DNA of 64,000 nt, taken from the NCBI GenBank assembly GCA_035506535.1, contig DATJPE010000063.1, forward strand, positions 63,966-127,965, given 5' to 3'. A model generated the notes under the pieces. The model searched no databases, was not told the origin of the DNA, and saw nothing but the letters and a program-made list of their open reading frames with translations. Shown here piece after piece: positions 13,397-63,445 of the stretch. The first letter of the stretch is position 1. Each line of letters starts with the position of its first letter. The translations under genes were made by a program, and so were the position numbers. Origin of the DNA: Actinomycetes bacterium (GTDB lineage: Bacteria; Actinomycetota; Actinomycetes; DATJPE01).

Positions 13397-13453
13397 TTGC
13401 AATGAACGCGGCGTTCCTCCAATAGGTTCGACTGAACGCCGCGTTCATTCCAA
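13397..13453. repeat. Double-palindrome intergenic repeat, copy A (TTGCAATGAACGCGGCGTTC-cTCCAATAGGTtCGACT-GAACGCCGCGTTCATTCCAA)
   Basis: Arms of 17-20 bp are nearly perfect inverted repeats. The element is flanked by a C-run and a G-run. It lies in the convergent spacer between upp and pntB. It is one of 9 copies in the window. Confidence 0.8.
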
Positions 13454-13474
13454 GAGAAGCGGGGGGACGGGCGG

Positions 13475-14854
13475 CTACAGGCCCTTGACGGCGGCGACGA
13501 CCTTGGTGAGGGAGTCCTTGGCGTCACCGAAGAGCAGGGTGGTGTTCGGTTGGTACAGCAGCTCGTTGTCGATGCCGGCGAAGCCGGGGCGCATCGAGCG
13601 CTTGAGGAAGACCACGTTCGCCGCCTGCGCGACGTCGAGGATCGGCATGCCGTAGATCGGGCAGCCAGGGTCGGTACGGGCCGCCGGGTTGACGACGTCG
13701 TTGGCTCCCACGACGAGCGCGACATCCGTCGATGCCAGCTGCGGGTTGACCTCCTCGGCCTCGTGCAGCGCCTCGTAGGGGACGTTCGCCTCGGCCAGCA
13801 GGACGTTCATGTGGCCGGGCATGCGGCCGGCCACCGGGTGGATGCCGTAGATGACGTCGACGCCGCGTTCCCCGAGCAGGTCGGCGAGCTCGCGCAGGGC
13901 GTGCTGGCCCTGGGCGACGGCCAGGCCGTACCCGGGGACGATGACCACCCTGCGGGCGTACCCGAGCAGGATGGCGACGTCCTCCGGGCTGCCCGAGCGG
14001 ACCGGGCGGTCGCTCACCGTTCCGCCACCGATCGTCGAGGCGCCGGAGAACGCACCGAACAGGGTCTTGGTCAGAGGGCGCCCCATGGCCGTGGCCATCA
14101 TCCGGGTCAGCAGCGTGCCGGAGGCCCCGACGAGGGTGCCGGCCACGAGGAGCAGCACGTTGTTCAGGACGTAGCCGCTCGCGGCCACGCTGAGGCCGGT
14201 GAAGGCGTTGAGCAGTGAGATGACGATGGGTACGTCGGCGCCGCCGACGGGCAGCACGAACAGCACACCCAGCACCAGCGAGACCAGCGCCAGGGCGACC
14301 AGTACGGCCATCGACCTCGAAGGCACCACGGCGACCGCGAGCGCCACGGCAGCGAGGGCGACCCCGATCGAGACCCAGCGCCCGAACGGCACGACGACTG
14401 GGCGGGTCGTGATGAGCTCCTGCAGCTTGAGGAAGGTGACCACCGAGCCGCTGAACGAGACGGACCCGACGAGCACGGTGAACGCGCTCGCCGCGAGGTA
14501 GCGGCTCGAGGCGTGGGACCCGCCGTCGTCGAACTCGATGAGGGCGACGAGTGCGGCAGCGGCTCCACCAACGCCGTTGAACATGGCGACCAGCTGGGGC
14601 ATCGCGGTCATCGCCACGCGGCGGGCCGCCGGGACGGCCACTGCCGCGCCCACGGCGATCGCGACGAGGACGAGCAAGAGGTGCTGGGCGTCGAGGTCCT
14701 CGTGAACGATCGTCACGATGACGGCGAGCGCCGCGCCCGCAGCGCCGATCAGGTTGCCGTTGCGGGCCGTCCTCGGCGAGGAGAGCCCCTTGAGGGCGAG
14801 GATGAAGCAGACGGCTGCGACCAGGTACAGCAGCCGGACCCACGTGTCGCTCAC
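13475..14854 (-). CDS. pntB: NAD(P) transhydrogenase subunit beta
   Basis: 459 aa. The N-terminus is polytopic and the C-terminal domain III is an NADP(H)-binding domain (GYGLAVAQGQH..., GANDVVNPAA). Confidence 0.9.
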   Translation of the reverse strand: MSDTWVRLLYLVAAVCFILALKGLSSPRTARNGNLIGAAGAALAVIVTIVHEDLDAQHLLLVLVAIAVGAAVAVPAARRVAMTAMPQLVAMFNGVGGAAAALVALIEFDDGGSHASSRYLAASAFTVLVGSVSFSGSVVTFLKLQELITTRPVVVPFGRWVSIGVALAAVALAVAVVPSRSMAVLVALALVSLVLGVLFVLPVGGADVPIVISLLNAFTGLSVAASGYVLNNVLLLVAGTLVGASGTLLTRMMATAMGRPLTKTLFGAFSGASTIGGGTVSDRPVRSGSPEDVAILLGYARRVVIVPGYGLAVAQGQHALRELADLLGERGVDVIYGIHPVAGRMPGHMNVLLAEANVPYEALHEAEEVNPQLASTDVALVVGANDVVNPAARTDPGCPIYGMPILDVAQAANVVFLKRSMRPGFAGIDNELLYQPNTTLLFGDAKDSLTKVVAAVKGL

Positions 14855-15162
14855 GCCTGAGGTCTCCCGTCCGGGGTGGCCTTGGGCGCCTGTCTCGGCT
14901 TGAACATCTGCAGCATCCGGTCGGTGACCACGAAGCCCCCGACCATGTTCACCGTGGCCAGTACGACGGCCACCAGTCCGAGCCCGAGCTCGAGGCCGTG
15001 CGCGTGACCGGTGACCACGATCGCCCCGACGAGGATCACGCCATGGATGGCGTTGGCGCCCGACATCAGCGGGGTGTGCAGGGTCGTCGAGACCTTCGAG
15101 ATGACCTCGAAGCCGACGAACACCGAGAGCACGAAGACCGTGAGCAGGCCGATGCCGTCCAT
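14851..15162 (-). CDS. pntAB: NAD(P) transhydrogenase subunit alpha part 2 (membrane segment)
   Basis: About 103 aa from ATG 15162 (MDGIGLLTVFVLSVFVGFEVISKV...). There is an ATGA overlap with the pntAA stop and a 4-nt overlap with the pntB start. Confidence 0.8.
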   Translation of the reverse strand: MDGIGLLTVFVLSVFVGFEVISKVSTTLHTPLMSGANAIHGVILVGAIVVTGHAHGLELGLGLVAVVLATVNMVGGFVVTDRMLQMFKPRQAPKATPDGRPQA

Positions 15163-16289
15163 CAGGCGGGGTCCTCCCCGGGCAGGGTGATTCCGTCGCG
15201 CAACGTCCCGTCCCGGGTCACCCAGGACCCGGCCACGATCTCGTCCTCCCACCGGGGCGCGAGCGAGCCGTCCTCGCCGGCCAGCAGCGCGAGGAGCGCG
15301 AAGACGTTCGCGGAGTACAGCTTGGCGGCGTGTACGGGCAGCTGCGAGGCGACGTCCCGCGCGCCCCACACCAGCACGCCGTGGTGGTCGACCTCCTCGC
15401 CGGGGCGCGAGACGTCGCAGTTGCCGCCGCTCTCGGCGGCGAGGTCGACGACGACCGACCCGGGCTTCATCCCGGCGACCATGTCGCCGGTCACCAGCAG
15501 CGGGGCGCGGCGCCCGGGGACGGCCGCGGTGAGGATGAGGGCGTCGGCGGCAGCGACGTACGGCGCCAGCAGCTCGCGCTGCCGCTGCGCGCGGTCCTCG
15601 GTCATCTCCCGGGCGTACCCCCCGGCGCCCTCCAGGGAGTCCAGGTCGAGCTCGACGAACGTCGCGCCCATGGAGCGGACCTCCTCGGCCGCCGCGGCCC
15701 GCACGTCGTAGGCCTCAACGACGGCGCCGAGCCGCCGGGCGGTCGCGATCGCCTGCAGGCCGGCCACGCCGGCACCCAGGACGAGCACCTTGGCGGGCGG
15801 GACGGTGCCCGCGGCGGTCATGAGGAGCGGGAAGAAGCGCGGCAGCCGGTCCGCGGCGACCAGCGCCGAGCGATAGCCGGTCACCAGGGCCTGGGAGGAC
15901 AGCGCGTCCATCGACTGGGCGCGCGAGATCCGGGGCAACAGCTCGAAGGCGAAGCTGGTGACGCCGCGCGCGAGCGCGGCGCGTACGGCTGCCGGCTCGC
16001 CGGTCGGCGAGCAGAAGCCGAGCGTCACGCCGGTCGGGGCCAGCCGCGCGATGCGCGCGGGGTCCAGGGCGGCGACGTGGACGACGACGTCGGCGGCGAG
16101 CGCCTCGGCCTCGTCGCAGGGGTGCGCGCCCGCGGCGACGTAGGCGTCGTCGTCCGCGAGGGCTGCCCGGCCGGCCCCGCGCTCGACGGCGACCTCGTGA
16201 CCGTCCTTCACCAGCCGCTGGACGTGCTCGGGCACGAGGGCGACCCGGCGCTCGCCCGGGCGCGACTCGGCGGGGACCCCGATCCTCAT
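15162..16289 (-). CDS. pntAA: NAD(P) transhydrogenase subunit alpha part 1 (NAD(H)-binding domain I)
   Basis: 375 aa. Alanine dehydrogenase/PNT N- and C-domains with a Rossmann GxGxxG motif (VLVLGAGVAGLQA). Confidence 0.9.
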   Translation of the reverse strand: MRIGVPAESRPGERRVALVPEHVQRLVKDGHEVAVERGAGRAALADDDAYVAAGAHPCDEAEALAADVVVHVAALDPARIARLAPTGVTLGFCSPTGEPAAVRAALARGVTSFAFELLPRISRAQSMDALSSQALVTGYRSALVAADRLPRFFPLLMTAAGTVPPAKVLVLGAGVAGLQAIATARRLGAVVEAYDVRAAAAEEVRSMGATFVELDLDSLEGAGGYAREMTEDRAQRQRELLAPYVAAADALILTAAVPGRRAPLLVTGDMVAGMKPGSVVVDLAAESGGNCDVSRPGEEVDHHGVLVWGARDVASQLPVHAAKLYSANVFALLALLAGEDGSLAPRWEDEIVAGSWVTRDGTLRDGITLPGEDPA

Positions 16290-16436
16290 CGCGGACTCTC
16301 CACCCGGGTGGCGGATCGCTCGAGGGCGCTCATCCCGACCTCATGCGCGCACCCTAGGCGACGCGGGTGCCGAGATCGCGGAGGGGTCGCCGGGCGGCGG
16401 GAACCCGGCGGGCGTACGGCCAGGACTGGGAGGAGG

Positions 16437-17896: not shown

Positions 17897-17916
17897 CACA
17901 GACCTCGGGAGATGTC

Positions 17917-20078: not shown

Positions 20079-20123
20079 GCTTTCGTTGCAATGAACGTGG
20101 GCGACGAAGGAGGGCGACGAAAG
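20079..20123. repeat. Degenerate half-copy of the double-palindrome repeat (copy B): CTTTCGTTGCAATGAACGtGG...GCGACGAAAG hairpin
   Basis: It contains the TTGCAATGAACG arm and is flanked by its own inverted repeat CTTTCGTtGC/GCGACGAAAG. It sits in the 5' leader of the GlcD-like gene. Confidence 0.5.
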
Positions 20124-20259
20124 AGGGGGACGGCGGGCGGGGGCCGGGTGGCAGGGGGCGGCTGGGCTCAAGGAGGCGGCGGGATGGGTCGACATCTCCT
20201 CCACGGGGGCGTCGTCCGAACCCGGAGGACGTACGAGACCGTGCTCGGGGGGAGCACCC

Positions 20260-24512: not shown

Positions 24513-27500
24513 TCAGATCTCGAGCGGCCCTGGTCGCCTCGGGTACCGCCGGCTCCCGGCGAACCCGAGGCGGTCCAGGGCCTGTTCGCTCTCGGCGTCC
24601 CAACGCCGGGCCGACTCCTCGTCACCCCGCATCCGCGCCACCCGCGCCAACTCGGCGAGGATGAACCCGCACTCGACCCGGCCCTGGGCGTCCGCCGTCT
24701 CCAGCGCTCGATGCAGCGTCTCCTCGGCGATGTCGACGTCGCCGAGGTCCACCTCGGCCGCGCCCTGCAACCGGAGCAGCCACGGCAGCAGGTAACCGGC
24801 GTCCAGCGCGGTCGCACGTACGGCTGCGTCGTCGGCGAGGTCCCGCGCCTCCTGGGCCCGCCCCTCGCCGAGCAGGCCGAGGGCGATCGCGGCGTCGGTC
24901 TCCGCTACCTCGGACGGCTCGCCGAACTCGATGAACATCGCGCGCGCTCCTTCCAGTTCGGCTTGGCCCTCGTCGTGCTGCCCCTCGAGGACCAGCGCGA
25001 GCCCGAGCGCGCGGTGGGCGACAGCGATGAAGTCGCCGACACCGGCTCCCTGCAGGGTGGGGATGAGCCGGCGCAGGATGTCCTCCGCCTCGCGGGTACG
25101 GCCGAGCCGGACGAGGACGTCACCCACGTTGCACCCGGTCTGGGCCGCACCGACCGTGTCGCCGGACTCCTCGGCGAGGCGCTGGGCGCGCTCGAACATC
25201 TCCAGCGCCTCCTGGCCGCGCCCCTGGATCCACGCCAGGACGGCGAGGTTGTTGAGCGCGCGCGATTGCCCGGCGCGAAAGCCGAGGTGCTCGTAGAGCT
25301 CCAGCGCCTGCTGCCCGTACGGCCGGTCCGGCTCGCCCCCGAGCATGGACGTCACGCCGTGCAGCGCCTCCAGCGCATCCGCCAGAGCAGCGGTGTCGCC
25401 GGAGGCCTCGGCGTCGCGTTCGGCCAGACGAGCCCACTGGAGGGCGTCCCGGTAGCGGCCCTGGTTCTCCCGGACGACCGCGTACACGCCCTCGAGCCGG
25501 CTGCGCGCGGCCAGGCTCTGGGCGTCGCCGTGCCCGTCGAGCAGCCGCAGGCCCCGTGTCACGCTTCGCAGTGCAACCGGCTGGCGGCCAAGGCGGTTCT
25601 GGATCGCCGCCTCCTCCTTGAGCACGAGGGCGGCTCGGGCCGGGTAGCCCTTGAGCCGCGCGCGTGCCCCCTTCAGCGCGACGAGCGCGGCCTCGTTGCG
25701 CCCCAACCGGTTCCGCGCCTCACCGAGGGAGAGGTAGGCCGACGCCACCTGTTCGTCGGGGACGTCGCGGAGCCCGCGCACCGAGGCGACCGCGCGCTCG
25801 AGGTGCTCCTCGGCCTCGACGTAGGCGTACTTCTCCGCCGCGCGCTCCCCGGCGAGCCGCGCGTAGTACCACGCCTTGTCGTGACGGGCCGCGTGGAAGT
25901 AGTGCAGCGACAGCAGCTCGGCCACGTCGTCCGGGTCCGACGTCCGCGCCTCGATCACCTCTCCCGCCCGCCCGTGCAGCTCGCGCCGCAGGCGGAACGG
26001 CAGTCCCTCGTACGCCGTGTCGCGCAGCAGCTGGTGGTCGAAGTGGAATCGCCCGTGCCCCTCGGCCTGGATGAAGAACGACATCCGCCGCAGCGCCGCC
26101 CGGCTCGTCGGCAGCGGGTGCCCCTGGAGCAGCGCCCGCAGCGTCGCCTCGTCGAAACGCATGCCGAGCACCGAGGCGAAACGCAGCACGGTGCGCTCGT
26201 CCGGGGGCAGGCGGTCGATCTGGCTGGTGATGAGCGCCTCGACGGTGCTCGGCAGCGCGTCGAGCGAGGCGCCTTCACGGGCCGCCAGGGCGAGGCCGCG
26301 CAGGAACAGGGGGTTGCCGTTGGCTCGGGCCGCCAGCGCGGCGACGTCGTGCGGGGCTAGCGCGGTGTCGGCGAGCGCGGCCATGACCAGCGAGCTCGCG
26401 GCTGCGGCGTCGAGCGGCGCCGGTCGGACCTCGACGACCGGGTAGCGCGGCGACGGGCGGAACCCCTCCCCGACGTCGCGGCGGGTGACCACCACGAGCC
26501 AGGGCCGACCCGCCAGGCCGAGGCACAGCTGCTCGAGCAGGTCCACGGACGCCTCGTCCATGAGGTGGACGTCGTCGAAGACCAGCACGGCCTGACCGGG
26601 CTGAACCGCCGTCGCGAGGCGTACCACCACCTCCTCGGTCCGTGACCGGCGGAACCGCTCGTCGAGCGCGTCCACCTCGGGCGTGCTCGGCAGGTCCACG
26701 TCGAGCACCTGTCCCACCAGCGGCAGCCAGGGCAGCAGCGAGGGGTCGGCACGCGTAGCGCTCTCGACCAGCGCGGCGACCAGCGTCTCCTCGTCGGCCT
26801 CCTCGGAGACGTCGAGCAGCTCGCCGAGCAGCGCCCGGAACGGCCAGTACGGCGTCGCCGTCTGGAACTCGTCGCACCGCGTGGTGAGCACCCGCGCAGG
26901 GGTGTCCCGCAGCATCTCCTCGACCAGACGCGACTTGCCGATGCCCGGCTCCCCCACGAGGTCCACGAGCTGGCCGCTGCCCGCCGCTGCCTTCTCCGCC
27001 GCCTCGCGCAGGACGCCCAGCTCGGCCTCGCGACCGATGAACGGCGAGTCCTCCCTGCCCCGACGCTCGCTGAGCAGGCGCCCGAGGCTGAACGCGTGCA
27101 CCGGCTCGGACTTGCCCTTGACCAGGAACGGCGGCATCGCCTCGGCGTCGAAGCGTGCCGCCGAGGCCTCGACCACCGCGGCCGTGGCGAGGACCTGCCC
27201 GGGCTCGGCCTTGCCCATCACCCGGGCCGCCAGGTTGATGGCGTCGCCCTTGACCGAGAACGTCTTGCGGAACGACGGGCCGAAGTCACCGGCGAAGACG
27301 GGTCCGCAGTTAACGCCGATCCGGATGGGGAGCTGCCCGACCAGGTCGACGACGTGCCGGGCCGCGCGCAGCATCCGCTCCTCGTCGTTGCCGAGGCTGA
27401 CCGGGGCCCCTGCAGTGAGCATGATCTTGCCGCCGTCACGGTTGATGTCGGACTCGAAGAAGGTCACCCCGTGCCGCTCGGTGGCGTCCTGCACGTTGCG

Positions 27501-28340
27501 CACGCACTCGTCGAGCGCCTCGGCGAGGGCCTGCGGCCCACGTTCGGCGAGGACCGCGTCGGTTCCGGAGAACTGCACGAAGGCCACCGCGATCCGCCGG
27601 TGCTCGGGCTCGCCGGACGCGCTGAGCAGGTGGGCGCGGATGTTCGGAGGGATGAGCGTGGCGAGGTCCAGACCCGCCGTCGACGGCCGCGGGACGACCT
27701 CGCTGTCCTCGACCACGGGGTCGGCCGCGAGGAGGAAGCCCCCGCCCTTGGCGTCCCCCACGCTCGACGCCTCGAGCAGGGCGGCGGTCTCGGGGGACAC
27801 GACGACCTCGCCCGCCTCGGCGATCGCCTCCATCTCGGCCGTACGGCTCGCGGCCGGCCCGCTGACGATGAGCTCGCGGTGCACGGCGGGGTCGCCGACG
27901 AGGAAGAAGTGGAACGCTCCGCTGTGAATGCCCACGGACATGCGGAGCTCGACGCGTCCCGAGCCGGTGCTGAGCTGGCCGATCCGGCGCAGCCGGGCCC
28001 GCATCCGCGAGCTGGCCAGCGCCGCCCGAGCGGCGTGGTCGGGGCCCTCGAACAGCAGGAGCACGGCGTCGCCGCCCCACTTCACCAGGCCGGCGCCCGT
28101 CGGGTAGGCAACCGAGAGCAGGTCGGCGAAGGTGGCGTTGAGAATGTCGCTCATCTCCTCCGCGCCGACCTTGCCCTTGCGGGCGAGTCGCTCGGTCAGC
28201 GCGGTGAAGCCGGAGATGTCGACGAACGCGAGCGAGCCGTCGACCTCGCGCCAGAGGGCATCGGGGGTGTCGCGCAGCCAGGTCAGGGCGAGCCGGGGGA
28301 CGTACGGCTCCAGCAGGGCCACGTCCGCGCGCTCCGCCAT
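24513..28340 (-). CDS. Multidomain STAND-type signalling protein with two class III adenylate/guanylate cyclase domains, an AAA+/NB-ARC-like ATPase and TPR repeats. It has no C-terminal HTH.
   Basis: 1275 aa. The first cyclase domain is FVDISGFTALTERL...WGGDAVLLLF and the second is IAVAFVQFSGTDAV...GDAINLAARV. The P-loop is GEPGIGKSRLVEE. About 500 aa of TPR-like repeats follow. Unlike the mycobacterial Rv0386-type proteins it lacks a LuxR HTH. Confidence 0.8.
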   Translation of the reverse strand: MAERADVALLEPYVPRLALTWLRDTPDALWREVDGSLAFVDISGFTALTERLARKGKVGAEEMSDILNATFADLLSVAYPTGAGLVKWGGDAVLLLFEGPDHAARAALASSRMRARLRRIGQLSTGSGRVELRMSVGIHSGAFHFFLVGDPAVHRELIVSGPAASRTAEMEAIAEAGEVVVSPETAALLEASSVGDAKGGGFLLAADPVVEDSEVVPRPSTAGLDLATLIPPNIRAHLLSASGEPEHRRIAVAFVQFSGTDAVLAERGPQALAEALDECVRNVQDATERHGVTFFESDINRDGGKIMLTAGAPVSLGNDEERMLRAARHVVDLVGQLPIRIGVNCGPVFAGDFGPSFRKTFSVKGDAINLAARVMGKAEPGQVLATAAVVEASAARFDAEAMPPFLVKGKSEPVHAFSLGRLLSERRGREDSPFIGREAELGVLREAAEKAAAGSGQLVDLVGEPGIGKSRLVEEMLRDTPARVLTTRCDEFQTATPYWPFRALLGELLDVSEEADEETLVAALVESATRADPSLLPWLPLVGQVLDVDLPSTPEVDALDERFRRSRTEEVVVRLATAVQPGQAVLVFDDVHLMDEASVDLLEQLCLGLAGRPWLVVVTRRDVGEGFRPSPRYPVVEVRPAPLDAAAASSLVMAALADTALAPHDVAALAARANGNPLFLRGLALAAREGASLDALPSTVEALITSQIDRLPPDERTVLRFASVLGMRFDEATLRALLQGHPLPTSRAALRRMSFFIQAEGHGRFHFDHQLLRDTAYEGLPFRLRRELHGRAGEVIEARTSDPDDVAELLSLHYFHAARHDKAWYYARLAGERAAEKYAYVEAEEHLERAVASVRGLRDVPDEQVASAYLSLGEARNRLGRNEAALVALKGARARLKGYPARAALVLKEEAAIQNRLGRQPVALRSVTRGLRLLDGHGDAQSLAARSRLEGVYAVVRENQGRYRDALQWARLAERDAEASGDTAALADALEALHGVTSMLGGEPDRPYGQQALELYEHLGFRAGQSRALNNLAVLAWIQGRGQEALEMFERAQRLAEESGDTVGAAQTGCNVGDVLVRLGRTREAEDILRRLIPTLQGAGVGDFIAVAHRALGLALVLEGQHDEGQAELEGARAMFIEFGEPSEVAETDAAIALGLLGEGRAQEARDLADDAAVRATALDAGYLLPWLLRLQGAAEVDLGDVDIAEETLHRALETADAQGRVECGFILAELARVARMRGDEESARRWDAESEQALDRLGFAGSRRYPRRPGPLEI

Positions 28341-28379
28341 CGCCTCCCCACATCCTCTGGCCGGCCCCGTGCCCGGAGT

Positions 28380-30038
28380 CTATGAGCCTGACGGGGGCTC
28401 CTGCCTGAGCGCCGAGGCGAGGTCTCGGGCCCGGTGGGCGTCAGCGACCTCGCTGGCGAGCGCGTGGCCGTCCGCACTGCCGGTCACAGCCGCCAAGAAG
28501 TCGGCACCGCTCAGCACGAGCAGCCGGGCCGGGGACCGCGCCGTCACGGTGGCCGTGCGGGGCACCGACCGCAGCAGGGCCACCTCCCCGAAGGCGTGGC
28601 CCGGTGCCAGCGTCTGTGGCCGGGCGACCCCGTCGACCGTGACCGTGAACAGGCCGTCCGCGATGACGTAGAAGTCCTGCGCGTCCTCGCCCTGCACCAC
28701 GACGTCGGTGCCGGCCGTGACCTCCGTCCACCGCGCGTTCCGGGCCAGGCGCTCCAGCTCGAACTCGGGGAGCACGGCGAGGAAGCCGACGGTCCGCAGG
28801 AGGCGGATCTCGTAGGGAAGGTAGACAGCGCGGTCGTCCAGGCGCCGGATGAACCATGCGCTCCCCAGGGCGAGGGCCACGGCGCCCGCTCCCAGCGGCA
28901 CGAAGGTCTGGGCGGGATCGAGCCAGCCGAGCAGCAGCGACACGGAGGCGGCGCCGACCGCCAGCCCGACCAGCGACATCCCCTCCTGCACGGCGAAGAC
29001 CCGCGCCAGCACGGCGTCGTCGATCGCGCGTTGCAGCAACGTCCGACCGCAGACCATGAGCATCGCCTCCGCGGCCCCGACGAGGGCGATCACGACCATG
29101 GCAGCACCGAGGCCGGACACGACCGACACGACGGCGAACCCGGCACCTTCGGCCACGCCCAGGAGGACGATCGCCGGTCCGAGCCGGCGCCGCCGAGCGA
29201 TGAGCGCCGCAGCGGCTGCACCCACCAGGCCGCCGATGCCGATGGCCCCCACGACCAGGCCCGCGCCGGACTGGCCGTGGTGCAGGGTGTCGACCGAGAA
29301 CGCGACGCCGAGCACGTCCAGCGCCCCGGCGAGGAAGAACGTCGTGGTCAGCAGGACGAGCAGGGTCAGGGCGGGCCAGTCCCCGCGCAGCGAACGCAGC
29401 CCCTGGAAGGCAGCCCGCCACCCGTCGGCCTCCTCGTCGGCCGCGGCCCGACCGAGGTGCAGCCCGCTGGAGAGCAGGGTGGCGACGGCCGCCGCGATAG
29501 CCGCGCCGGCGAACACCAGCCACGGGCCGGCGTACGCGGCACCGAAGCCGGCGAGCACGGGGCCGAGGAAGGCGGCGACGCCGTCGAGCACCGAGGACAG
29601 CGAGTTCGCGGAGACGAGGTGGTCGCTGGTCCGCGACAGCTGGGGCAGGGCGGCGAAGTGGATCGGCCGCACGACGGCCACGGCGACCGTGGCCGTCGTC
29701 GACGCGGCCACGACCAGGGGCAGGGGCGCGGAGGCCAGGATGGCGATCAGGGTGAGGGTGACGGTCGCGGTCACCCCGGCGTAGGCGAGCGCGAGCGCGC
29801 GCCCTCTCGGCAGCCGGTCGCCGATCGCGGCGAGGGCCGGGGCGAGCATCGAGGCAGGGACCAGCTGGATGACGGTGACGACGCCCGCCGTGCGGGCCCC
29901 GTCGGCCGCGAAGACGTACAGGATGACCGCGAGCCAGATCGAGAACTCGACCAGCCCATAGAGGCCATAGGCCACCAGCACCCTGCGCAGCCCCGTCCGC
30001 GCCTGCAACGCCCGCAGGGTCACGGGAAGAGCACGCAT
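28380..30038 (-). CDS. MFS transporter fused to a C-terminal cyclic nucleotide-binding (CAP-effector) domain
   Basis: About 552 aa from ATG near 30038 (MRALPVTLRALQARTGLRRVLVAYGLYGL...). It has 12 predicted TM helices. The C-terminal cNMP-binding signature is FGEVALLRSVPRTATVTARSPARLLVL. Confidence 0.7.
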   Translation of the reverse strand: MRALPVTLRALQARTGLRRVLVAYGLYGLVEFSIWLAVILYVFAADGARTAGVVTVIQLVPASMLAPALAAIGDRLPRGRALALAYAGVTATVTLTLIAILASAPLPLVVAASTTATVAVAVVRPIHFAALPQLSRTSDHLVSANSLSSVLDGVAAFLGPVLAGFGAAYAGPWLVFAGAAIAAAVATLLSSGLHLGRAAADEEADGWRAAFQGLRSLRGDWPALTLLVLLTTTFFLAGALDVLGVAFSVDTLHHGQSGAGLVVGAIGIGGLVGAAAAALIARRRRLGPAIVLLGVAEGAGFAVVSVVSGLGAAMVVIALVGAAEAMLMVCGRTLLQRAIDDAVLARVFAVQEGMSLVGLAVGAASVSLLLGWLDPAQTFVPLGAGAVALALGSAWFIRRLDDRAVYLPYEIRLLRTVGFLAVLPEFELERLARNARWTEVTAGTDVVVQGEDAQDFYVIADGLFTVTVDGVARPQTLAPGHAFGEVALLRSVPRTATVTARSPARLLVLSGADFLAAVTGSADGHALASEVADAHRARDLASALRQEPPSGS

Positions 30039-30180
30039 CCGGCCGTCCCCGTCTGCTCGCCTCTTGTTTGCTGCGAGGATAGGAGGTCTGGCCACAGGAG
30101 CGCAGCGGGAACGCCGCGTCGGCGCACCAAAGGGCTGATACGTTCGAAGCACGCGTGGTGCGCCGGCGAAGGAGGGTGCG

Positions 30181-30597
30181 GTGACGCCGTACGAGATGCT
30201 CGCGCAGGTGGACCTGTTCAAGACCCTGCCGAGCGACGTCATCTACGAGATGGTCGAACGCAGCTCGACGCACCGGACCGCGCCGGGAGCGGTGCTGGTC
30301 GAGCAGGGCAGCCCCGACTCGGGCCTGCGTCTGATCATCGAGGGGACCGCGACCGTCTCGGTCAACGGGGTGGAGCGAGGCGAGATGAAGACCGGCGACT
30401 ACTTCGGCGAGATCTCCCTCATCGACTCACAGCCGCGTTCGGCGACGGTCATCGCCGGCCCGGAGGGCGTACGGACGCTCGCCATGTCGCCGCTGACCTT
30501 CTCGCAGCTGCTCGACGCTCACCCGCAGATCGCCCGCAAGCTGTTGCCGGTGCTCACGGCGCGGATCCGTCGCATCGAGGCGGCCCAGCACGACTAG
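30181..30597 (+). CDS. Stand-alone cyclic nucleotide-binding domain protein
   Basis: 138 aa. The signature is GDYFGEISLIDSQPRSATVIA (the FGE...RSA phosphate-binding cassette). There is no output domain. Confidence 0.7.
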   Translation: MTPYEMLAQVDLFKTLPSDVIYEMVERSSTHRTAPGAVLVEQGSPDSGLRLIIEGTATVSVNGVERGEMKTGDYFGEISLIDSQPRSATVIAGPEGVRTLAMSPLTFSQLLDAHPQIARKLLPVLTARIRRIEAAQHD

Positions 30598-30608
30598 GTG
30601 GTGGTGAC

Positions 30609-31439
30609 GTGCGGCTGACGCTGCTGGGGGTGCGTGGCTCCACGCCCGCGCCCGGGCGAGACTTCGTGCGCTACGGCGGGCACACCTCGTGCATCGCGGT
30701 GACGCGTGACGACGAGGACCTGCCGGATCTGGTGCTCGACGCCGGCACCGGCTTCCGCGGACTTCCCGGGCTGCTCGGCGGAGCCGCGTACGACGGCTCG
30801 ATCCTGCTCAGCCACCTGCACTGGGACCACGTCCAGGGGATCCCGTTCTGCCCCTCCGGGGACCGCGACGACTCCCGGGTCGATGTGTTCCTGCCCGCGC
30901 AGGAGGGCCTGAGCGGGCGCGACCTGTTGGCCCAGCTGATGGCACCCCCGGCGTTCCCGATCACCCCGGAGGGCCTGCGCGGTGACTGGTCCTTCCACGC
31001 GGTGCAGCCGGGAATGTTCGAGACCGACGGATACGTCGTCACCGCCTGCGAGGTGACGCACAAGGGCGGTCGCACGTACGCCTACCGCGTCGAGGCGGAC
31101 GGTGCCTCCCTCGCCTACGCCCCGGACCACGCCCCCGCGCTCGGCCTCGACGATGCCACCCTGCGCACCATGGAGGGCGTCGACCTGCTCGTTCAGGACG
31201 CGCAGTTCATCGACCGCGAACGGCTGATCGCCGACGACTACGGGCACGCGACCGTCCGGGACGCCGTCGAGCTCGCCCAGCGCGTCCATGCGCGTGCCGT
31301 CCTGCTCTTCCACCACGGGCCGGGGCGCAAGGATGACGACCTCGACCGCATCGCCGACGACATCGCCGCGGACGTCACGGTCCTCACCGCCTACGAGGGC
31401 ATGGTCCTCGACGTGACGAGCCGGACCATGAGCCGGTGA
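30609..31439 (+). CDS. MBL-fold metallo-hydrolase (candidate class II-like cNMP phosphodiesterase or nuclease)
   Basis: GTG 30609 follows AGGTGGTGA. The SHLHWDHVQG motif matches HxHxDH. It is the last 277 codons of the artefactual 1001-aa ORF 28434..31439. Its stop overlaps the next gene's start. Confidence 0.7.
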   Translation: MRLTLLGVRGSTPAPGRDFVRYGGHTSCIAVTRDDEDLPDLVLDAGTGFRGLPGLLGGAAYDGSILLSHLHWDHVQGIPFCPSGDRDDSRVDVFLPAQEGLSGRDLLAQLMAPPAFPITPEGLRGDWSFHAVQPGMFETDGYVVTACEVTHKGGRTYAYRVEADGASLAYAPDHAPALGLDDATLRTMEGVDLLVQDAQFIDRERLIADDYGHATVRDAVELAQRVHARAVLLFHHGPGRKDDDLDRIADDIAADVTVLTAYEGMVLDVTSRTMSR

Positions 31440-31918
31440 GCGAGCTCCTCGCGCTGTGCGCCGACCTGCCCGTCGAGGCTGTTCCGCCCGGACAGACCCT
31501 CATCGTCGAGGGTGACGCCCCGGGCCCGATGTACGTGCTGCGCACCGGCAGCGTCAGCGTCGAACGCGACGGCGTACCGGTGGCCCGCATCCACGCCTCC
31601 GGTGCGGTCCTCGGCGAGATGTCCGTCGTCCTGGAGCGACCCGCCACCGCGACGGTACGCGCGGAGCAGGAGGTGACGGTCCACGTCGTCGAGGACCCTC
31701 ACGACTTCCTCAGCGCCAACCCTGGCGCCGCGCTGGCGGTGCTGCGCACGACGGCGGCGCGGCTCGACGGGATGACGCAGTACCTCGTGGACGTCAAGCA
31801 GCAGTACGCCGGTCTGGGCGGCCACCTGGCGATGGTCGACCAGATCCTGGACGCCCTGGTCCACCACCAGCCGTCGACCGCGCGGACCGGGTCCGTCCGT
31901 GACCCCGAGGTGGGCTGA
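31436..31918 (+). CDS. Stand-alone cyclic nucleotide-binding domain protein (second copy)
   Basis: 160 aa. The signature GEMSVVLERPATATVRAEQEVTV is a cNMP-binding cassette. There is an ATGA overlap with the MBL hydrolase gene. Confidence 0.7.
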   Translation: MSELLALCADLPVEAVPPGQTLIVEGDAPGPMYVLRTGSVSVERDGVPVARIHASGAVLGEMSVVLERPATATVRAEQEVTVHVVEDPHDFLSANPGAALAVLRTTAARLDGMTQYLVDVKQQYAGLGGHLAMVDQILDALVHHQPSTARTGSVRDPEVG

Positions 31919-37996: not shown

Positions 37997-38036
37997 CCGT
38001 GGTCACCTCCCCGTCCGCCGCGGCCACCCCACCTTC

Positions 38037-38092
38037 TCGAATGAACGCGACATTCCTCCAATAGGACCGTAGGAACGCCGCGTTCATTCGAA
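38037..38092. repeat. Double-palindrome intergenic repeat, copy C
   Basis: TCGAATGAACGCGaCaTTC-CTCCAATAGGACCGTAG-GAACGCCGCGTTCATTCGAA. It lies between the CPBP protease start and the BBE oxidase stop. Confidence 0.8.
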
Positions 38093-38110
38093 GAGTAGGC
38101 AGCCCGCGGG

Positions 38111-39487: not shown

Positions 39488-39597
39488 GCGTGCCCCCTTC
39501 GCTAGGTCGGGGCTCGCCGCGGCGGACTAGAGCGCGCGGGCTGGCACGACCGTAGTGCCCGCCGTCACCCTGAGGCCAGAGCCGCCCCACCCTCTCC

Positions 39598-39652
39598 TGC
39601 AATGAACACGGCGTTGTGCCACTAGGCGGGCAACTACGCCGCGTTCATTGCA
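39598..39652. repeat. Double-palindrome intergenic repeat, copy D (variant core GTGCCACTAGGCGGGCAAC)
   Basis: TGCAATGAACaCGGCGTTG-tgccactaggcgggc-AACtACGCCGCGTTCATTGCA. It has the same arms but a different loop from copies A, C and F. It overlaps the 3' end of the GH32 gene. Confidence 0.75.
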
Positions 39653-40814
39653 ACGGGAAGGGGAGGCCGACTACGGCGTTGCCGGTGCAGACCTCGAGCA
39701 CGGGGCCGTCGACGAGCACGTCGACCGGCCCGGCGGGGTCCGGCACGTCCACGTCGTGCCCCGGAGCCGAGACGCGCACCGACGCCGGCCCCACGGTGAC
39801 GGACACGGTCTCGTCGAGACGTGCCTCCGCTTCCAGCTCGTCAGTCGCGATCCGCCAGTGGCGGACACCCGGGCGCGCCGACCGGAGGGGTTCGCTCACC
39901 GACGGGTGCGGCTCCAGGTGGACCCGTCCGTCCACCAGCGACATCCGGTACGGGATGCTCAGCGCGCCCGTCCACCGTCCACCCGGGTCGGCGACGCCGC
40001 GGATCCAGAACATGAGCGCGGGTCGGCCCTCGGCGTCGGTGAAGGCGGCAGGTGCGTAGTGACCCGGGCCGTACGTCAGCTGCTGCCAACGCTCCACGTC
40101 CAGCCGGCCCTCGGCGTAGGTACCGACGGCCGCGAGCACGTTCAGGTTCACGTTCGGCTGCCACGCGGACACGATCATCACGCACCGCTCGCCGAGATCG
40201 ACCAGCTGCGGGCACTCCCAGGCCTCGCCCGATGCCAGGCCGCCCGTCGGGCTGGTCCGCGAGCTGGCCAGCACCCCGTCGTAGGTCCACCCAGACAGAT
40301 CCGCGGACGTGTAGCTCACCGCCGCCGCGGTCCCGTCGCTGAGTCCGGCGCCGACGAACATCCGCCAGTGGTCGGCCTCGCGACGAACGACCGGGTCGCG
40401 GAACACGCGGATCCCTTCGCCCTGCGGAGCACGTACGACGGTGCCGGCTCTCTCCCACCGCTGCCACTCGGCGTCGACGGCACGGGCCGTGCGGATCTCG
40501 CCGATGTCGAAGGCGGGGCCTCGCACCGAGGTATAGAAGATCGTCGGCTCGCCGGTGACCGGATCAGGGACCAAGGTCCCCGACCAGCACCCGTCCTCGT
40601 CGTCACCTGGGACGAGCACCGACCCGTGATGGGTCCAGGTCACCAGGTCGGGACTGGTGGCATGACCCCACTGACAGCGAGGGTTCCAGTGGCTCTCGCC
40701 CGGAAGCGATTGGTAGAACAGCTCGTAGTGGCCGTCGCGATAGGTGATGCCGAGCGGGTCGTTGAGCCATCCGTGCGGCGCCGTGAGGTGCAGCGCCGGC
40801 CGTGCCTCGTGCAT
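39645..40814 (-). CDS. Glycoside hydrolase family 32 (beta-fructofuranosidase / levanase-like)
   Basis: The N-terminal motif HLTAPHGWLNDPLG (WMNDPNG type) and the RDP and EC motifs (FRDPVV, WECP) are present. The start is assigned to ATG 40814. Confidence 0.7.
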   Translation of the reverse strand: MHEARPALHLTAPHGWLNDPLGITYRDGHYELFYQSLPGESHWNPRCQWGHATSPDLVTWTHHGSVLVPGDDEDGCWSGTLVPDPVTGEPTIFYTSVRGPAFDIGEIRTARAVDAEWQRWERAGTVVRAPQGEGIRVFRDPVVRREADHWRMFVGAGLSDGTAAAVSYTSADLSGWTYDGVLASSRTSPTGGLASGEAWECPQLVDLGERCVMIVSAWQPNVNLNVLAAVGTYAEGRLDVERWQQLTYGPGHYAPAAFTDAEGRPALMFWIRGVADPGGRWTGALSIPYRMSLVDGRVHLEPHPSVSEPLRSARPGVRHWRIATDELEAEARLDETVSVTVGPASVRVSAPGHDVDVPDPAGPVDVLVDGPVLEVCTGNAVVGLPFPLQ

Positions 40815-46783: not shown

Positions 46784-46804
46784 CCCCACCCGGCGCCATG
46801 TTCT

Positions 46805-46934
46805 GACTGAACGCGGCGTTCCCCCGGACCTATTGGAGGAATGTCGCGTTCAGTCGAAGCACGCGGGGGCCGAGGAGCCGACTCAACGCGGCGTTCAGTC
46901 GGACCTATTGGAGGAATGCCGCGTTCAGTCGGAA
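46805..46934. repeat. Tandem pair of double-palindrome repeats (copies E1 46805..46858 and E2 46880..46934) in inverted orientation relative to copy A
   Basis: GACTGAACGCGGCGTTC-ccccGGACCTATTGGAGGAATG-tCGCGTTCAGTCGAA and GACTcAACGCGGCGTTC-AGTCGGACCTATTGGAGGAATG-CCGCGTTCAGTCGGAA, separated by 21 bp. They lie in the convergent spacer between the thiolase and the SDR gene. Confidence 0.8.
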
Positions 46935-46993
46935 ACCGGCGGGGGCGCTTCCCGTCGCACCGGGAGAAGCGGGGCGGGGGCTGGGCGGGACGG

Positions 46994-52775: not shown

Positions 52776-53494
52776 CGGGCATGGCGGACCTCGACGCCGT
52801 GACGTCGGCCAAGAAGGCGGCGGCGGACTACGCCGTCGACACCTTCGTGGCTTCGGGGATGCGGGTCGGGCTCGGTACCGGCTCGACCGCGGTCTGGGCC
52901 GTCCGCCGGGTCGGGGAGCGGTTCGCGTCGGGGGCGCTCGCCGACGTGCTCGCCGTACCGACGTCGGAGGCGACCGCGGCGGAGGCGGCGCGGTGCGGCG
53001 TACCGCTGACCTCCCTGGACGACCACCCGGTCCTCGACGTGACCATCGACGGCGCCGACGAGGTCGACCCCGAGCTGGACTGCATCAAGGGCGGCGGCGG
53101 GGCGCACCTGCGGGAGAAGCTCGTCGCGCAGGCGAGCCGGCGGCTGGTGATCGTGGTCGACGACTCCAAGCGGGTGCCCGTGCTCGGGACGGCGTTCCCG
53201 CTGCCGGTCGAGGTGGTGCGCATGGCGCGCGTACCGGAGACGCTGTACGTGCGCTCGCTCGGCTTCGACGTGACGTGGCGCCGACGCGACGGGGCGCCCT
53301 TCGTGACCGACGAGGGCAACTGGATCCTCGACGTGGCCACCGGCCCGATCCTCGACAAGGACGGGCTGCTCGACCGGTTGCTGCGACGAGCCGGCGTCGT
53401 CGAGGTCGGCCTGTTCCTCGGGATGGCCTCCGACCTGGTCGTCGCCCACCCCGGCCGCGACGTCGAGCACCTGACCCGAGCCCCGAGCACCTGA
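52772..53494 (+). CDS. rpiA: Ribose-5-phosphate isomerase A
   Basis: Motifs GLGTGSTAV, DGADEVD and KGGGGAHLREK. GTG 52772 overlaps the GNAT stop; the alternative start is ATG 52781. Confidence 0.85.
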   Translation: MTGMADLDAVTSAKKAAADYAVDTFVASGMRVGLGTGSTAVWAVRRVGERFASGALADVLAVPTSEATAAEAARCGVPLTSLDDHPVLDVTIDGADEVDPELDCIKGGGGAHLREKLVAQASRRLVIVVDDSKRVPVLGTAFPLPVEVVRMARVPETLYVRSLGFDVTWRRRDGAPFVTDEGNWILDVATGPILDKDGLLDRLLRRAGVVEVGLFLGMASDLVVAHPGRDVEHLTRAPST

Positions 53495-53508
53495 CCCGCC
53501 CCTCCCTT

Positions 53509-53564
53509 CCGAATGAACGCGGCGTTCAGTCGGACCTATTGGAGGAATGCCGCGTTCATTCGAA
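53509..53564. repeat. Double-palindrome intergenic repeat, copy F (near-consensus)
   Basis: CCGAATGAACGCGGCGTTC-AGTCGGACCTATTGGAGGAATG-CCGCGTTCATTCGAA. It lies in the convergent spacer between rpiA and the bfaB-like gene and is flanked by C-rich and G-rich runs. Confidence 0.85.
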
Positions 53565-53575
53565 AACGGCGGGGG

Positions 53576-60833: not shown

Positions 60834-61551
60834 CCGCGGTCACCCACATCCACACCGCGGCGAGCGCGAAGAACCACCACTCGAAGGTGTACGCCAGGCT
60901 CTGCACCGACCACCGGATGCCGGGCCTCGGCGGCGGGGGGGCGGGTACGGCCGCCAGCGTCGAGCTCGGCGTCTGAGCCGCGAGGCCGACGTAGCCGTCG
61001 ACGAGCCGGTAGGGCATCAGCGACAGCAGGGGGGCGGTGGAGATCGTCGCGACTTGTCCGGCGGGGAGCACCGCCGGCAGGTCCGCCGCACCTACCGGCG
61101 CGTCCGGATCCTCGGCGGGGGCCAGCCACCCGTGGACGTCCACCGGCCCGGCCGGCACGCTGGGCGCGCTGCTCGGCCGACCGGGCACCCAGCCGCGCAG
61201 GACGACGACGGCGTGGCCGCCGAGCCCGGGTACGCCGAGCAGGGGCGTCAGCACGTACGAGCCGTCCCGGCCGTCGAGGCTGCGACCAGGCACGAGGACC
61301 TGGTGGGCGGCGTCGTAGCGACCGGCTGCGGTCACTGCGCGCGCCGGCGTACCCGCGGGGACGGCGAGGGACGGGCCCAGGGCCTGCGCGACCGGGACCG
61401 GTGGCGCCTTCGTCAGGTCGACCGCGTGCGGGGTGTCCCGTGTCCGGGCGCGGTGCCACTGCCACGACCCCAGGCCGATGAACGCCGCGATGGCGAGCAG
61501 CGTCGCGATGCTGCCCGCGACCCAACGCGGGGTGCCCAGGAACCGGTACAC
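60757..61551 (-). CDS. SURF1-family protein (cytochrome oxidase assembly)
   Basis: 264 aa. N- and C-terminal TM helices flank a periplasmic domain with the GSWQWHRA motif (SURF1 GxWQ..R). Its 3' end overlaps the DUF3817 ORF convergently. Confidence 0.6.
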   Translation of the reverse strand: MYRFLGTPRWVAGSIATLLAIAAFIGLGSWQWHRARTRDTPHAVDLTKAPPVPVAQALGPSLAVPAGTPARAVTAAGRYDAAHQVLVPGRSLDGRDGSYVLTPLLGVPGLGGHAVVVLRGWVPGRPSSAPSVPAGPVDVHGWLAPAEDPDAPVGAADLPAVLPAGQVATISTAPLLSLMPYRLVDGYVGLAAQTPSSTLAAVPAPPPPRPGIRWSVQSLAYTFEWWFFALAAVWMWVTAVRRERLRADAPPAPPGARPRTTRTG

Positions 61552-61586
61552 CTCGACAACGCTAAGCCCACCTCAGTGACGCCTCA

Positions 61587-61642
61587 CCCCCCTGCCTGCT
61601 CTAGGCCCCCCTGCCTGCTCTAGGCCCCCCTGCCTGCTTTGG
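61587..61642. repeat. Three tandem copies of a 19-bp unit CCCCCCTGCCTGCTCTAGG (third copy slightly diverged)
   Basis: Units lie at 61587-61605, 61606-61624 and 61625-61642. They sit immediately upstream of the SURF1 start and directly abut repeat copy G. Confidence 0.75.
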
Positions 61643-61696
61643 AATGAACGCGGCGTTCAGTCGCACCTAATGGAAGAACGCCGCGTTCATCCGGAA
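61639..61696. repeat. Double-palindrome intergenic repeat, copy G (core AGTCGCACCTAATGGAAG)
   Basis: TTGGAATGAACGCGGCGTTC-AGTCGCACCTAATGGAAG-AACGCCGCGTTCATCCGGAA. It lies between the SURF1 start and the DUF2127 gene stop. Confidence 0.8.
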
Positions 61697-61708
61697 AAGA
61701 GGGAGGGG

Positions 61709-62521
61709 TCAGAGGGGGGTGGCGGGCTGGCGGGTCGGCTGCTCGACGGCGGGTGAGGCCTGCGCCGCGGCCGCCGCCTCCACCGTGAGCAGGGACGCTT
61801 CGTGGCGCTGGGCGGCGTACGCCGTCCCGCCACCGCGCACCCCGAACAACCGCTTGGTCAGGACGAGGTAGGCCACGAGCGCGATGTTGAGGAGGAACGC
61901 GGCGAGCCGCAGCGGGGTGACCTTGTCGATCAGCTCGTAGATCTCGAACGGCAGGAACACCGAGGTCGCGACGGCGGCCAGGTACTCCCCCCAGCGCTTC
62001 AGCGACCACAGGCCCACCCCCTCGGCCACCTGCAGGCACGCGTAGGCGAACAGCCCCGCCCCGATCCACGCCAGGGTGCGCGGATCGGTCTCCAGGAGCC
62101 GGTGGATGCGGGCGATGATCGGGCTGTGGTCGATGTCGAGGTCGAAGGCCTGGGCTAGCGGCCGCGCGGCCGGAAGGATCCGGTCGAAGGTCTGCTCGAG
62201 GGAGCTCTCGGACGTACGGAACTGCAGGACGGCGTAGCCGAGCAGCGCCAAGACGGTGGCTCGCACCCAGCGCTCGACCGCGAACAGGCGCAGGATCGTC
62301 GCCTCGCGCAGCTGGCGCCCCCGAAGGACGAGGGGTGCGTCCGCGGCCGGCCCGCCGCCCTGCGGCTCACCGAGCACGAACGTCCCGCAGCGCAGGCACC
62401 GCCACGCCTCGCCCGCTGGCGTCGGCGCGTGCAGCCGCGCCGCCAGGTCCGGCTCGTCGGGACGGAAGGTGACGTGGCCGTGGCGGGCGCACCCGCGCAG
62501 GCTCCAGTCCACGGCGACCAA
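61709..62521 (-). CDS. DUF2127-like membrane protein with an N-terminal zinc-ribbon
   Basis: The N-terminal C..H...C..C (CARHGH...CLRCGTF) is followed by four TM helices. Confidence 0.5.
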   Translation of the reverse strand: MVAVDWSLRGCARHGHVTFRPDEPDLAARLHAPTPAGEAWRCLRCGTFVLGEPQGGGPAADAPLVLRGRQLREATILRLFAVERWVRATVLALLGYAVLQFRTSESSLEQTFDRILPAARPLAQAFDLDIDHSPIIARIHRLLETDPRTLAWIGAGLFAYACLQVAEGVGLWSLKRWGEYLAAVATSVFLPFEIYELIDKVTPLRLAAFLLNIALVAYLVLTKRLFGVRGGGTAYAAQRHEASLLTVEAAAAAQASPAVEQPTRQPATPL

Positions 62522-62602
62522 GCCTAGGGGCGACAGATGGGGCGGCGGTGAGAGGCGAGGGGTCGCGAGAAGTCGTACGTCGCCGGCGAGCGGCCGCGCG
62601 GG

Positions 62603-63259
62603 TCAGGACCAGGGGGCGTCAGGCAGGTGCTCGTCGAGCAAGCCACCGGGGCGACACTCGCCGGAGACGTACCCGTCGGGCATGTCCGGGTAGACGACCC
62701 GCCAGTACGTCCGTGCCAGGTACAGGCCCGCGCCGGGAGTCGCGCCGAGCAGCTGGGCCATGCGGGCGTCGCGCTGCACCGCCGCGCACTCGGCGAGCGC
62801 CTCGTCGGTGATGCCGGACATGTGCATGGACTCGTGGGTCAGCACGTGGACCGCGATGACCTGGTCGAGGGTCGGGTGGACCTTCGAGGAGTGCAGGTAG
62901 CCCCGCAGGTCCGCGCACTGGTCGTGCTTGATCAGGGTCCTGTGCTCCGGTACGCCGCCCGCGCCCCACTTGACGTACCCCAGCTCGGTTCCGCCGTCGA
63001 CGAAGGCCTGGCCGAAGGTCTGGCAGTGGACCGACACCCGGATGCCAATGAGCTCCGACGCGGCGGCGGCCAGCTGCTTCTGCTCCGCGCGCCGGTGCAC
63101 CCCCGGGGTCGCGAACACCAGCGCGGGCAGCACCAGCGCGACGACGGCGATCGCCGGGAAGCGTCCGGGACGGCCGAGGGCGTCGACGCGGTGCAGACCC
63201 CAGCGCAGGGCGAGGAACAGCGCCGCGCACACCAGCACCTGAGCCAGCGCGTCGAGCAT
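62603..63259 (-). CDS. Membrane-anchored putative zinc metallopeptidase (HExxH motif)
   Basis: It has an N-terminal TM helix and a VLTHESMHMSG (HExxH) motif. There is no recognisable family beyond the motif. Confidence 0.45.
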   Translation of the reverse strand: MLDALAQVLVCAALFLALRWGLHRVDALGRPGRFPAIAVVALVLPALVFATPGVHRRAEQKQLAAAASELIGIRVSVHCQTFGQAFVDGGTELGYVKWGAGGVPEHRTLIKHDQCADLRGYLHSSKVHPTLDQVIAVHVLTHESMHMSGITDEALAECAAVQRDARMAQLLGATPGAGLYLARTYWRVVYPDMPDGYVSGECRPGGLLDEHLPDAPWS

Positions 63260-63390
63260 GTCGCCTCCCTGCGGACGTACCCCGGCTTCTGCCAGCCCAT
63301 CACCGGCCCTCCCGAGCCCGGCGGGACCCGGTACCGACCCGGTACCCGACCCTGCCGCCCTGCCGAGTCAGCCTCACCCTCGGATCGGCA

Positions 63391-63445
63391 GGAATGAACG
63401 CGGCATTCATCCAATAGGTCCGACTGAATGCCCCGTTCATTCGAA
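63391..63445. repeat. Double-palindrome intergenic repeat, copy H (orientation as copy A, slightly diverged arms)
   Basis: GGAATGAACGCGGCaTTCAT-CCAATAGGTCCGACT-GAATGCCcCGTTCATTCGAA. It lies between the HExxH gene start and the ABC ATPase stop. Confidence 0.75.

Follow-up and report, generated by a model that had tools for sequence, protein, structure and literature searches.

Copies in the window and elsewhere in the species

We will describe a stretch of 64,000 nt, called here the window, from the genome of an uncultured Actinomycetes bacterium (assembly GCA_035506535.1, contig DATJPE010000063.1, positions 63,966–127,965 of the forward strand). It has a G+C content of 68–75%. Among its genes there is a short element formed by two palindromic arms, GAATGAACGCGGCGTTC and GAACGCCGCGTTCATTC, which are inverted relative to each other, are each internally palindromic and flank a core of 17 nt. 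The window contains eight full copies over seven loci, in both orientations. The arm motif GAACGCCGCGTTCATTC (17 nt, up to three mismatches) has 24 matches in the window versus 0.18 expected; none of 100 shuffles reaches 24. All these matches are confined to the eight elements, and an nhmmer profile built from the elements recovers the same eight and nothing further in the window at E ≤ 1.

The copies are named by letters and their coordinates are the spans of a 67-nt model. Copy A (13393–13459, plus strand) is found between two convergent genes, upp with its stop at 13383 and pntB with its stop at 13475; together with its C-run and its G-run it occupies the entire gap of 91 nt between both stops. 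Copy C (38032–38098, plus) lies at a tandem junction, between the stop of a FAD/BBE oxidase (38111, minus strand) and the start of an Rce1-like gene (37996, minus). Copy D (39593–39659, plus) is also at a tandem junction and has the stop of a GH32 gene (39645, minus) within its arm. It belongs to a second subfamily, type 2, with the core GTTGTGCCACTAGGCGGGCAAC; all the other copies of the window are type 1. Copies E (46796–46862, minus) and F (46871–46937, minus) form a head-to-tail pair, 75 nt apart, between the convergent stops of a thiolase (46783, plus) and a short-chain dehydrogenase (46994, minus). Copy G (53502–53568, minus) is placed between the convergent stops of rpiA (53494) and of a CMAS gene (53576). 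Copy H (61633–61699, minus), with two substitutions in its core, lies in tandem between the stop of a DUF2127 gene (61709, minus) and the start of SURF1 (61551, minus). Finally copy I (63385–63451, plus) is found, also in tandem, between the stop of an ABC-ATPase (63481, minus) and the start of an open reading frame (ORF) of 218 aa (63259, minus).

The initial annotation of this window had counted nine copies at eight loci. The eight full copies at seven loci stand, but the ninth, a half-copy which would be B (20079–20140, no strand assigned), is not a member: about 13–15 nt resemble one arm, there is neither a second arm nor a core, and the nhmmer profile misses it at E ≤ 1. It lies between divergent FAD-oxidase (minus) and EAL (plus) genes, in a promoter region. 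The architecture of two inverted arms around a core was correctly described, as were the two orientations. The core was said to be replaced in copies D and G: this is the case for D, but G has the standard core in reverse (GTCGGACCTATTGGAGG).

The same element is found in other parts of the genome. A search pattern based on the core, which leaves most of both arms free and fixes only the 4–5 positions proximal to the core, matched 27 metagenome stretches of the same species; a single JGI soil sample supplied 25 of these. Three of the 27 overlap the window, with 99.4–99.9% identity to it, and the others are other parts of the same genome. A profile search of all of them gave 37 distinct copies, located on the window and 24 other contigs (25 sequence stretches); 29 of the copies are outside the window. 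The family is not confined to the window, and its description as a dispersed family is upheld. There are two subtypes: 31 copies are type 1, with the core CCAATAGGTCCG, and six are type 2, similar to copy D, with a core around GTTGTGCCACTAGGTGTGCAAC, unchanged inner arms and a longer stem.

The mean pairwise divergence among copies is 11.8% and no pair is identical; on average a copy departs from the consensus at about four of 53 positions. The nearest relative of a copy is usually found on another contig, with differences at 1–4 of 58 positions, which indicates dispersal and not local duplication. The tandem pair E/F was considered as a recent local duplication, a possibility which we reject: the nearest relatives of E and of F are on other contigs.

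It might be thought that the copies arose by local duplication or through faulty assembly and are confined to this contig, since the window comes from a metagenome assembly and the JGI contigs break at copies. We consider that this can practically be discarded. The same copies are present in independent assemblies of the species from ENA, JGI and Logan, which are 99.4–100% identical to the window where they overlap it; 29 more copies are found on other contigs, and copies diverge from one another by about 12%. The JGI contigs often end within or next to a copy, and in four cases two contigs overlap there by 126–142 nt (L013/L034, L018/L024, L021/L032 and L014/L031). Such breaks are the expected effect of a dispersed repeat on a short-read assembly.

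The closest relatives of two proteins of the window are found in metagenome contigs (78–88% identity); Nonomuraea, Saccharothrix and Motilibacter give 61–66%. The lineage is therefore poorly sampled.

Structure of the element

The complete element has about 75–80 bp. It is formed by a C-run, TTTYCG, one arm (AATGAACGCGGCGTTC), an asymmetric core of 17 nt (CTCCAATAGGTCCGnnn), the inverted arm (GAACGCCGCGTTCATT), CGRAA and a G-run. Model positions 5–61 make up a conserved unit of 57 nt, TTYCGAATGAACGCGGCGTTCCTCCAATAGGTCCGnnnGAACGCCGCGTTCATTCGRA. Each arm holds a nearly perfect palindrome, GAACGC-N-GCGTTC, with exactly 30 bp between the centres of both arms. All 31 type-1 copies agree at many positions of the arms; conservation of the core is partly due to the core-based search, while arm positions 8–21 and 47–60 are outside the search pattern. 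No type-1 copy failing this pattern was found in about 330 kb.

The flanking runs have fixed positions, C on the 5' side and G on the 3' side, as the initial annotation had noticed in part when it described C-runs and G-runs next to the copies. The C-run covers positions −7 to −2, with C in 26–27 of the 31 copies at −6 and −5; the G-run covers +68 to +74, with G in 23–24 of 31 at +69 and +70. Complementarity between both flanks of a copy is no higher than between flanks of different copies (longest match 5.89 versus 6.09 nt), and the runs are absent at orthologous empty sites. For these reasons we consider that the runs belong to the element and are not remnants of earlier hairpins. Insertion of the element into pre-existing terminator hairpins was also considered and is rejected: the empty sites have no hairpin of C-run and G-run, and the complementarity of the flanks is not specific of each copy.

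Some positions of the element are variable. Positions 39–41, at the loop-proximal end of the right arm (13431–13433 in copy A), are hypervariable: ACT, CAG, AAG, GAG, GGG, TAG, CTG and other triplets are found there, between neighbours without any variation in 31 copies. At position 21, 13 of 31 copies have A, which looks like the marker of a subfamily.

Tandem duplications of 17–20 nt are found at the outer end of several copies, spanning the G/C-run or the neighbouring stop codon. A unit of 20 nt, GAGCACCTGACCCGAGCCCC, is present twice next to copy G (53456–53495, plus strand); it is repeated five times in a second population (L014). A unit of 19 nt, CTCTAGGCCCCCCTGCCTG, is duplicated next to copy H (61600–61638, plus) and takes in the G/C-run of the element itself. 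Another case is found in contig L020, at about 10285–10330. The ends of the element therefore appear to be hot spots of slippage.

The palindromic arms raise another interpretation: they could be operators for a dimeric DNA-binding protein, either a regulator or a nucleoid-associated protein, so that the family would be a set of landing pads with paired sites 30 bp apart. Each arm is by itself a nearly perfect palindrome of 13–21 bp (TGAACGC-N-GCGTTCA), which is unneeded for a simple hairpin, and the spacing from centre to centre is fixed. The same palindrome is also found with other cores and contexts in other Actinomycetota (a Terracoccus metagenome-assembled genome, MAG, two further MAGs and three tandem copies in Glycomyces endophyticus), and in one contig of the species a solo palindrome stands beside a pair of copies. 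Against these points, the sites come after stop codons and not in promoters, and the neighbouring genes are functionally unrelated. In type-2 copies the arms have reduced internal palindromy while the long hairpin is retained, and the C-run and G-run lengthen the hairpin and not the palindromes. The arm motif has no match in the searchable literature, and 185,579 species genomes contain only eight loci that match both arms, of which three are unrelated AT-variant sequences. On balance we find a role as operators quite improbable.

The solo palindrome just mentioned, GCGATGAACGCCACGTTCATCGC, is found in contig L012 (2304–2330), where it immediately follows two full copies arranged head to tail. 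The family therefore has single units alongside doublets, as REP singlets beside REPINs (see below).

The eight loci mentioned above were obtained with a strict two-arm pattern in the GTDB species genomes, and this organism is not among their sources. In three actinobacterial MAGs the same arms surround other cores, in gene contexts without anything in common. We have set aside the possibility that these three loci form one system with the family, as their neighbour genes share no context. The arm palindrome TGAACGCSGCGTTCA is present with unrelated cores, once per locus, in the Terracoccus MAG and in two other Actinomycetota MAGs (among L005 2533–2598, L006 6428–6473, L010 171–216 and L008 1084–1150); L006 and L010 have a common core in opposite orientation. 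In G. endophyticus the three tandem palindromes are 26 nt apart.

Gene ends, hairpins and empty sites

Junctions were typed from precomputed gene calls, Pfam scans and codon-position G+C. We found 11 convergent loci, nine tandem loci (a gene end followed by the next gene start) and two divergent loci. The copies lie 0–40 nt past stop codons, which are typically 14–40 nt from the core. The initial annotation had placed all copies between genes, at convergent ends or between a gene end and the next start; this is generally so, but copy D is not strictly intergenic. A stop codon lies inside the arm (TCA within GTTCAT) in two cases: GH32 at copy D (39645–39647) and an RpiA orthologue in contig L044 (3083–3085). 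The element therefore supplies the last codons of GH32 and of the L044 RpiA: two genes borrow their stop codon from it.

Every copy can form one long hairpin on either strand, in which positions 8–24 pair with 42–58 and which is prolonged by TTTT/AAAA and by the C and G runs. Folded as RNA over 100 nt, the copies range from −44 to −61 kcal/mol, with z-scores between −4.2 and −7.7, and none of 200 shuffles is as stable; copy A reaches −60.5 kcal/mol (z −6.9). The consensus folded as DNA has −31 kcal/mol (z −6.8). In copy C the transcribed minus strand is more stable than the other one (−61.4 versus −43.9 kcal/mol), because two A·C mismatches turn into G·U pairs.

The pairing is maintained when the sequence changes. 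In an alignment of 38 copies, 82% of the cells of the 26-pair stem are standard pairs, versus 33–46% when the partner is slid by 1–3 columns. Changes on both sides of a pair are found in 58 cells versus 27.8 ± 5.7 in shuffles, none of 500 shuffles reaching 58, although part of this signal stems from the two subfamilies. Examples are the change of C-G to G-C at the column pair 9/61 (21 versus 9 sequences) and of A-U to C-G at 12/58. The symmetry of the stem is thus maintained; covariation does not distinguish whether this occurs at the level of single-stranded DNA, RNA or a dimeric protein.

These features could also be expected if the element were selected by the host as a signal of transcript ends, either a terminator or a stabiliser of mRNA 3' ends, and were not a selfish mobile sequence: the hairpin would be needed at gene ends and its spread would be secondary. 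Almost every copy has a stop codon no more than some tens of nucleotides away, conservation of the arms is strong, with many positions invariant in 31 of 31 copies, and compensatory changes keep the stem paired. The transcribed strand is the one that folds more stably at sites C, D and I. Canonical terminator-like sites are no commoner in the region than by chance (5 versus 2.6 ± 1.8 in shuffles), so that gene ends may need other hairpins. The details do not agree well with such a function. The role of terminator proposed in the initial annotation is weak: no copy is followed by a 3' U-tract, the T-run being placed 5' of the hairpin, and the five copies between 44.5 and 64 kb all go uncalled in a terminator scan. 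On both strands the inner hairpin has TTTT on its 5' side and an A-rich 3' side, which is the reverse of a bidirectional intrinsic terminator. Only two of about six convergent junctions between 43 and 64 kb have a copy, two copies lie between divergent gene starts, and in related genomes gaps of 14 and 35 nt suffice at the same junctions. Furthermore, a conserved asymmetric loop sequence is superfluous for a mere hairpin. Selection by the host for this purpose appears to us unlikely.

The comparison with relatives, already suggested in the initial annotation, shows that three orthologous sites are empty. In contig L043, with the same gene order over 11 genes and a CMAS protein 78% identical, there are 14 nt between both stops at site G and no element, versus 81 nt in the window, all of them element. 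Site H in the same contig has 35 nt and no element, versus 157 nt in the window. At site A, contig L047 (PntB 88% identical) has an unrelated spacer of 102 nt, and no copy is found in its 13 kb. On the other hand, contig L044 (CMAS 81% identical) has at site G a variant element with the same core orientation, without C and G runs and with the central pair of the arm flipped from G-C to C-G. The three empty sites and the variant show that copies have been gained or lost, in agreement with a mobile element which persists for long at some sites.

We conclude that this repeated and dispersed sequence, with a hairpin potential kept by compensatory changes, located at gene ends and either present or absent at orthologous sites, is probably a small palindromic element, mobile but non-autonomous, of the REP/REPIN or MITE kind, groups which are compared in the last section. 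The mechanism of transposition and any effect on RNA we infer as follows. The copies would spread to fresh intergenic sites by means of an enzyme encoded elsewhere in the genome, and would survive chiefly just past stop codons, where they should be harmless. In this position a copy would give one neighbouring transcript, or both, a very stable hairpin at the 3' end. Such a hairpin is probably a barrier to 3'-exonucleases or a target of RNase III, and not a canonical intrinsic terminator.

Several observations weigh against a mobile element of this kind. No transposase or Y1/RAYT domain (RAYT, REP-associated tyrosine transposase) was found among the genes of the window by gene calls and Pfam scans, in agreement with the initial annotation, which had seen no transposase nearby. 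With the RayT protein of E. coli, a tblastn search in 334 kb of DNA of the species gave nothing better than E = 0.12, and that match is not in a coding frame. Target-site duplications are absent: left and right flanks have a longest direct match of 4.62 nt on average, a value also obtained with mismatched pairs of flanks (4.62 ± 1.43). The divergence of the copies, none of them identical, gives no sign of recent bursts. The relatives are only 78–88% identical in protein, so that gain and loss of a copy are inseparable and no clean insertion boundary can be read. Nor do the tandem sites support an action on RNA: the core may point either way with respect to transcription (6 versus 3), and the asymmetry of G·U versus A·C, as a sign of selection on RNA, favours the transcribed strand in two cases and the other strand in one, which is not significant.

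We also looked at the genes found between paired copies in contigs L025 and L036 as candidate transposases. They were rejected: one is an ORF of 126 aa without Pfam match, the other an AAA-type ATPase with Mg-chelatase/AAA_5 domains. About 334 kb of DNA of the species contained neither a transposase nor a parent insertion sequence whose ends match those of the element.

The element has some practical consequences: it breaks short-read assemblies, contaminates ORF calls and gives hypervariable tandem duplications at gene ends. It is a possible strain-typing marker for an uncultured soil lineage. It also raises the question whether such elements substitute for the U-tract terminators which these genomes largely lack.

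Other features of the window should also be mentioned. A tRNA-Ser(CGA) is called by ARAGORN at 11446–11535 (minus strand); it is unreported by the Rfam search at gathering threshold. A cluster of cyclic-nucleotide signalling genes extends from 24513 to 31918: it has an adenylate/guanylate cyclase of 1275 aa with AAA and TPR domains, a fusion of an MFS transporter with a cyclic-nucleotide (cNMP)-binding domain and two small cNMP-binding proteins. The ORF of 218 aa next to copy I (62603–63259, no Pfam match) contains at 62812–62822 an indel of 11 nt (TGCCGGACATG) with respect to JGI contig L033, which is either a frameshifting polymorphism or an assembly error.

Comparison with known repeats

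The element matches no known structured RNA in Rfam: at gathering threshold, only two tRNAs pass in the window. A permissive Rfam search with copies C and D gave only a chance hairpin match to a plant miRNA model (20.8 bits versus a threshold of 79). A plasmid collection gave one chance match of 27 nt (E = 2, Treponema) and viral contigs none. In a literature search we found no relevant actinobacterial system of repetitive extragenic palindromic sequences (REPs), REP doublets forming hairpins (REPINs), RAYTs or miniature inverted-repeat transposable elements (MITEs), and the motif itself was unmatched.

The closest comparison is with REPs and REPINs, a type of element which has been much studied in Proteobacteria. 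REPs are short imperfect palindromes of 20–40 nt. At the 5' end of each REP there is a GTAG-like tetranucleotide, which is needed for cleavage by the RAYT. This enzyme is a Y1/HUH transposase, encoded by a single-copy gene which is itself flanked by REPs. In the family there is no conserved head of the GTAG type: the consensus TTTYCGAATGAACGCGGCGTTCCTCCAATAGGTCCGACTGAACGCCGCGTTCATTCGGAA has neither GTAG nor GTGG, and no RAYT gene was found in 334 kb. It differs also by its nearly perfect palindromic arms, its C-run and G-run ends and its actinomycete host, as REPs and REPINs mobilised by RAYT transposases have mainly been described in Pseudomonas and Enterobacteria (PMC3116915, PMC3337134, PMC5581495). 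The architecture itself is that of a REPIN: short extragenic palindromes form an inverted pair around a short spacer, and the whole folds into one long hairpin (PMC3116915, PMC3337134). There are many dispersed copies, mostly after gene ends, with occasional tandem clusters and solo units. In both cases there is no transposase inside the element and no target-site duplication, and an orthologous site of a related lineage may retain a variant. We have filed the family as REP/REPIN-like and not as a REPIN member, because it lacks the GTAG head and the 334 kb yielded no RAYT.

A bolder proposal would be a REPIN-like intragenomic replicator of Actinomycetota driven by something other than a classical RAYT, in which a protein conserved in several orders of actinobacteria would recognise the arm palindrome ATGAACGCSGCGTTCAT. 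The lack of a GTAG head and the C-run/G-run ends are the reason to think of a replicator without a classical RAYT. If it were true, such an arm-recognising protein would explain the same arms with unrelated cores in Terracoccus, Streptosporangiaceae-like and other MAGs. We give this proposal little credit.

Bacterial MITEs include the Correia elements of Neisseria, ERIC/IRU, RUP, BOX and Nezha. They are similar to the family by their size of 60–150 bp, terminal inverted symmetry, intergenic position and lack of coding sequence, and by effects on transcripts through hairpins, which in our case are presumed. The family falls within the range of 50–500 bp given for MITEs, and the inverted repeat takes in its whole unit of 75–80 bp, with the C-run and the G-run at its ends. 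It differs in that there is no target-site duplication and the inverted symmetry spans the entire element, not only its termini.

Palindrome-associated elements derived from IS200/IS605 insertion sequences (PATEs) also have two similar hairpin-forming palindromes around a short interior, both orientations and no target-site duplication. However, neither TnpA nor TnpB was seen with our family, and there is no conserved tetranucleotide target at the copies. The palindromes of the family are mutually inverted, whereas the hairpins at the left and right ends of IS200/IS605 are on the same strand.

A last comparison concerns the intrinsic I-shaped terminators, without U-tract, which have been discussed for Actinobacteria. 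They share with the family a GC-rich hairpin right after stop codons, often common to convergent genes. The family differs from them as a repeated, conserved sequence with a conserved loop, not an idiosyncratic hairpin, and with its T-run on the wrong side.

The initial annotation called this family previously unrecognised. This holds in the narrow sense that the libraries searched do not contain it; it is new as a family, but the phenomenon is ordinary and no general picture is changed by it. With its empty and filled orthologous sites it offers a starting point to ask what mobilises such elements in high-GC Gram-positive bacteria, for a kind of element which is otherwise well known.

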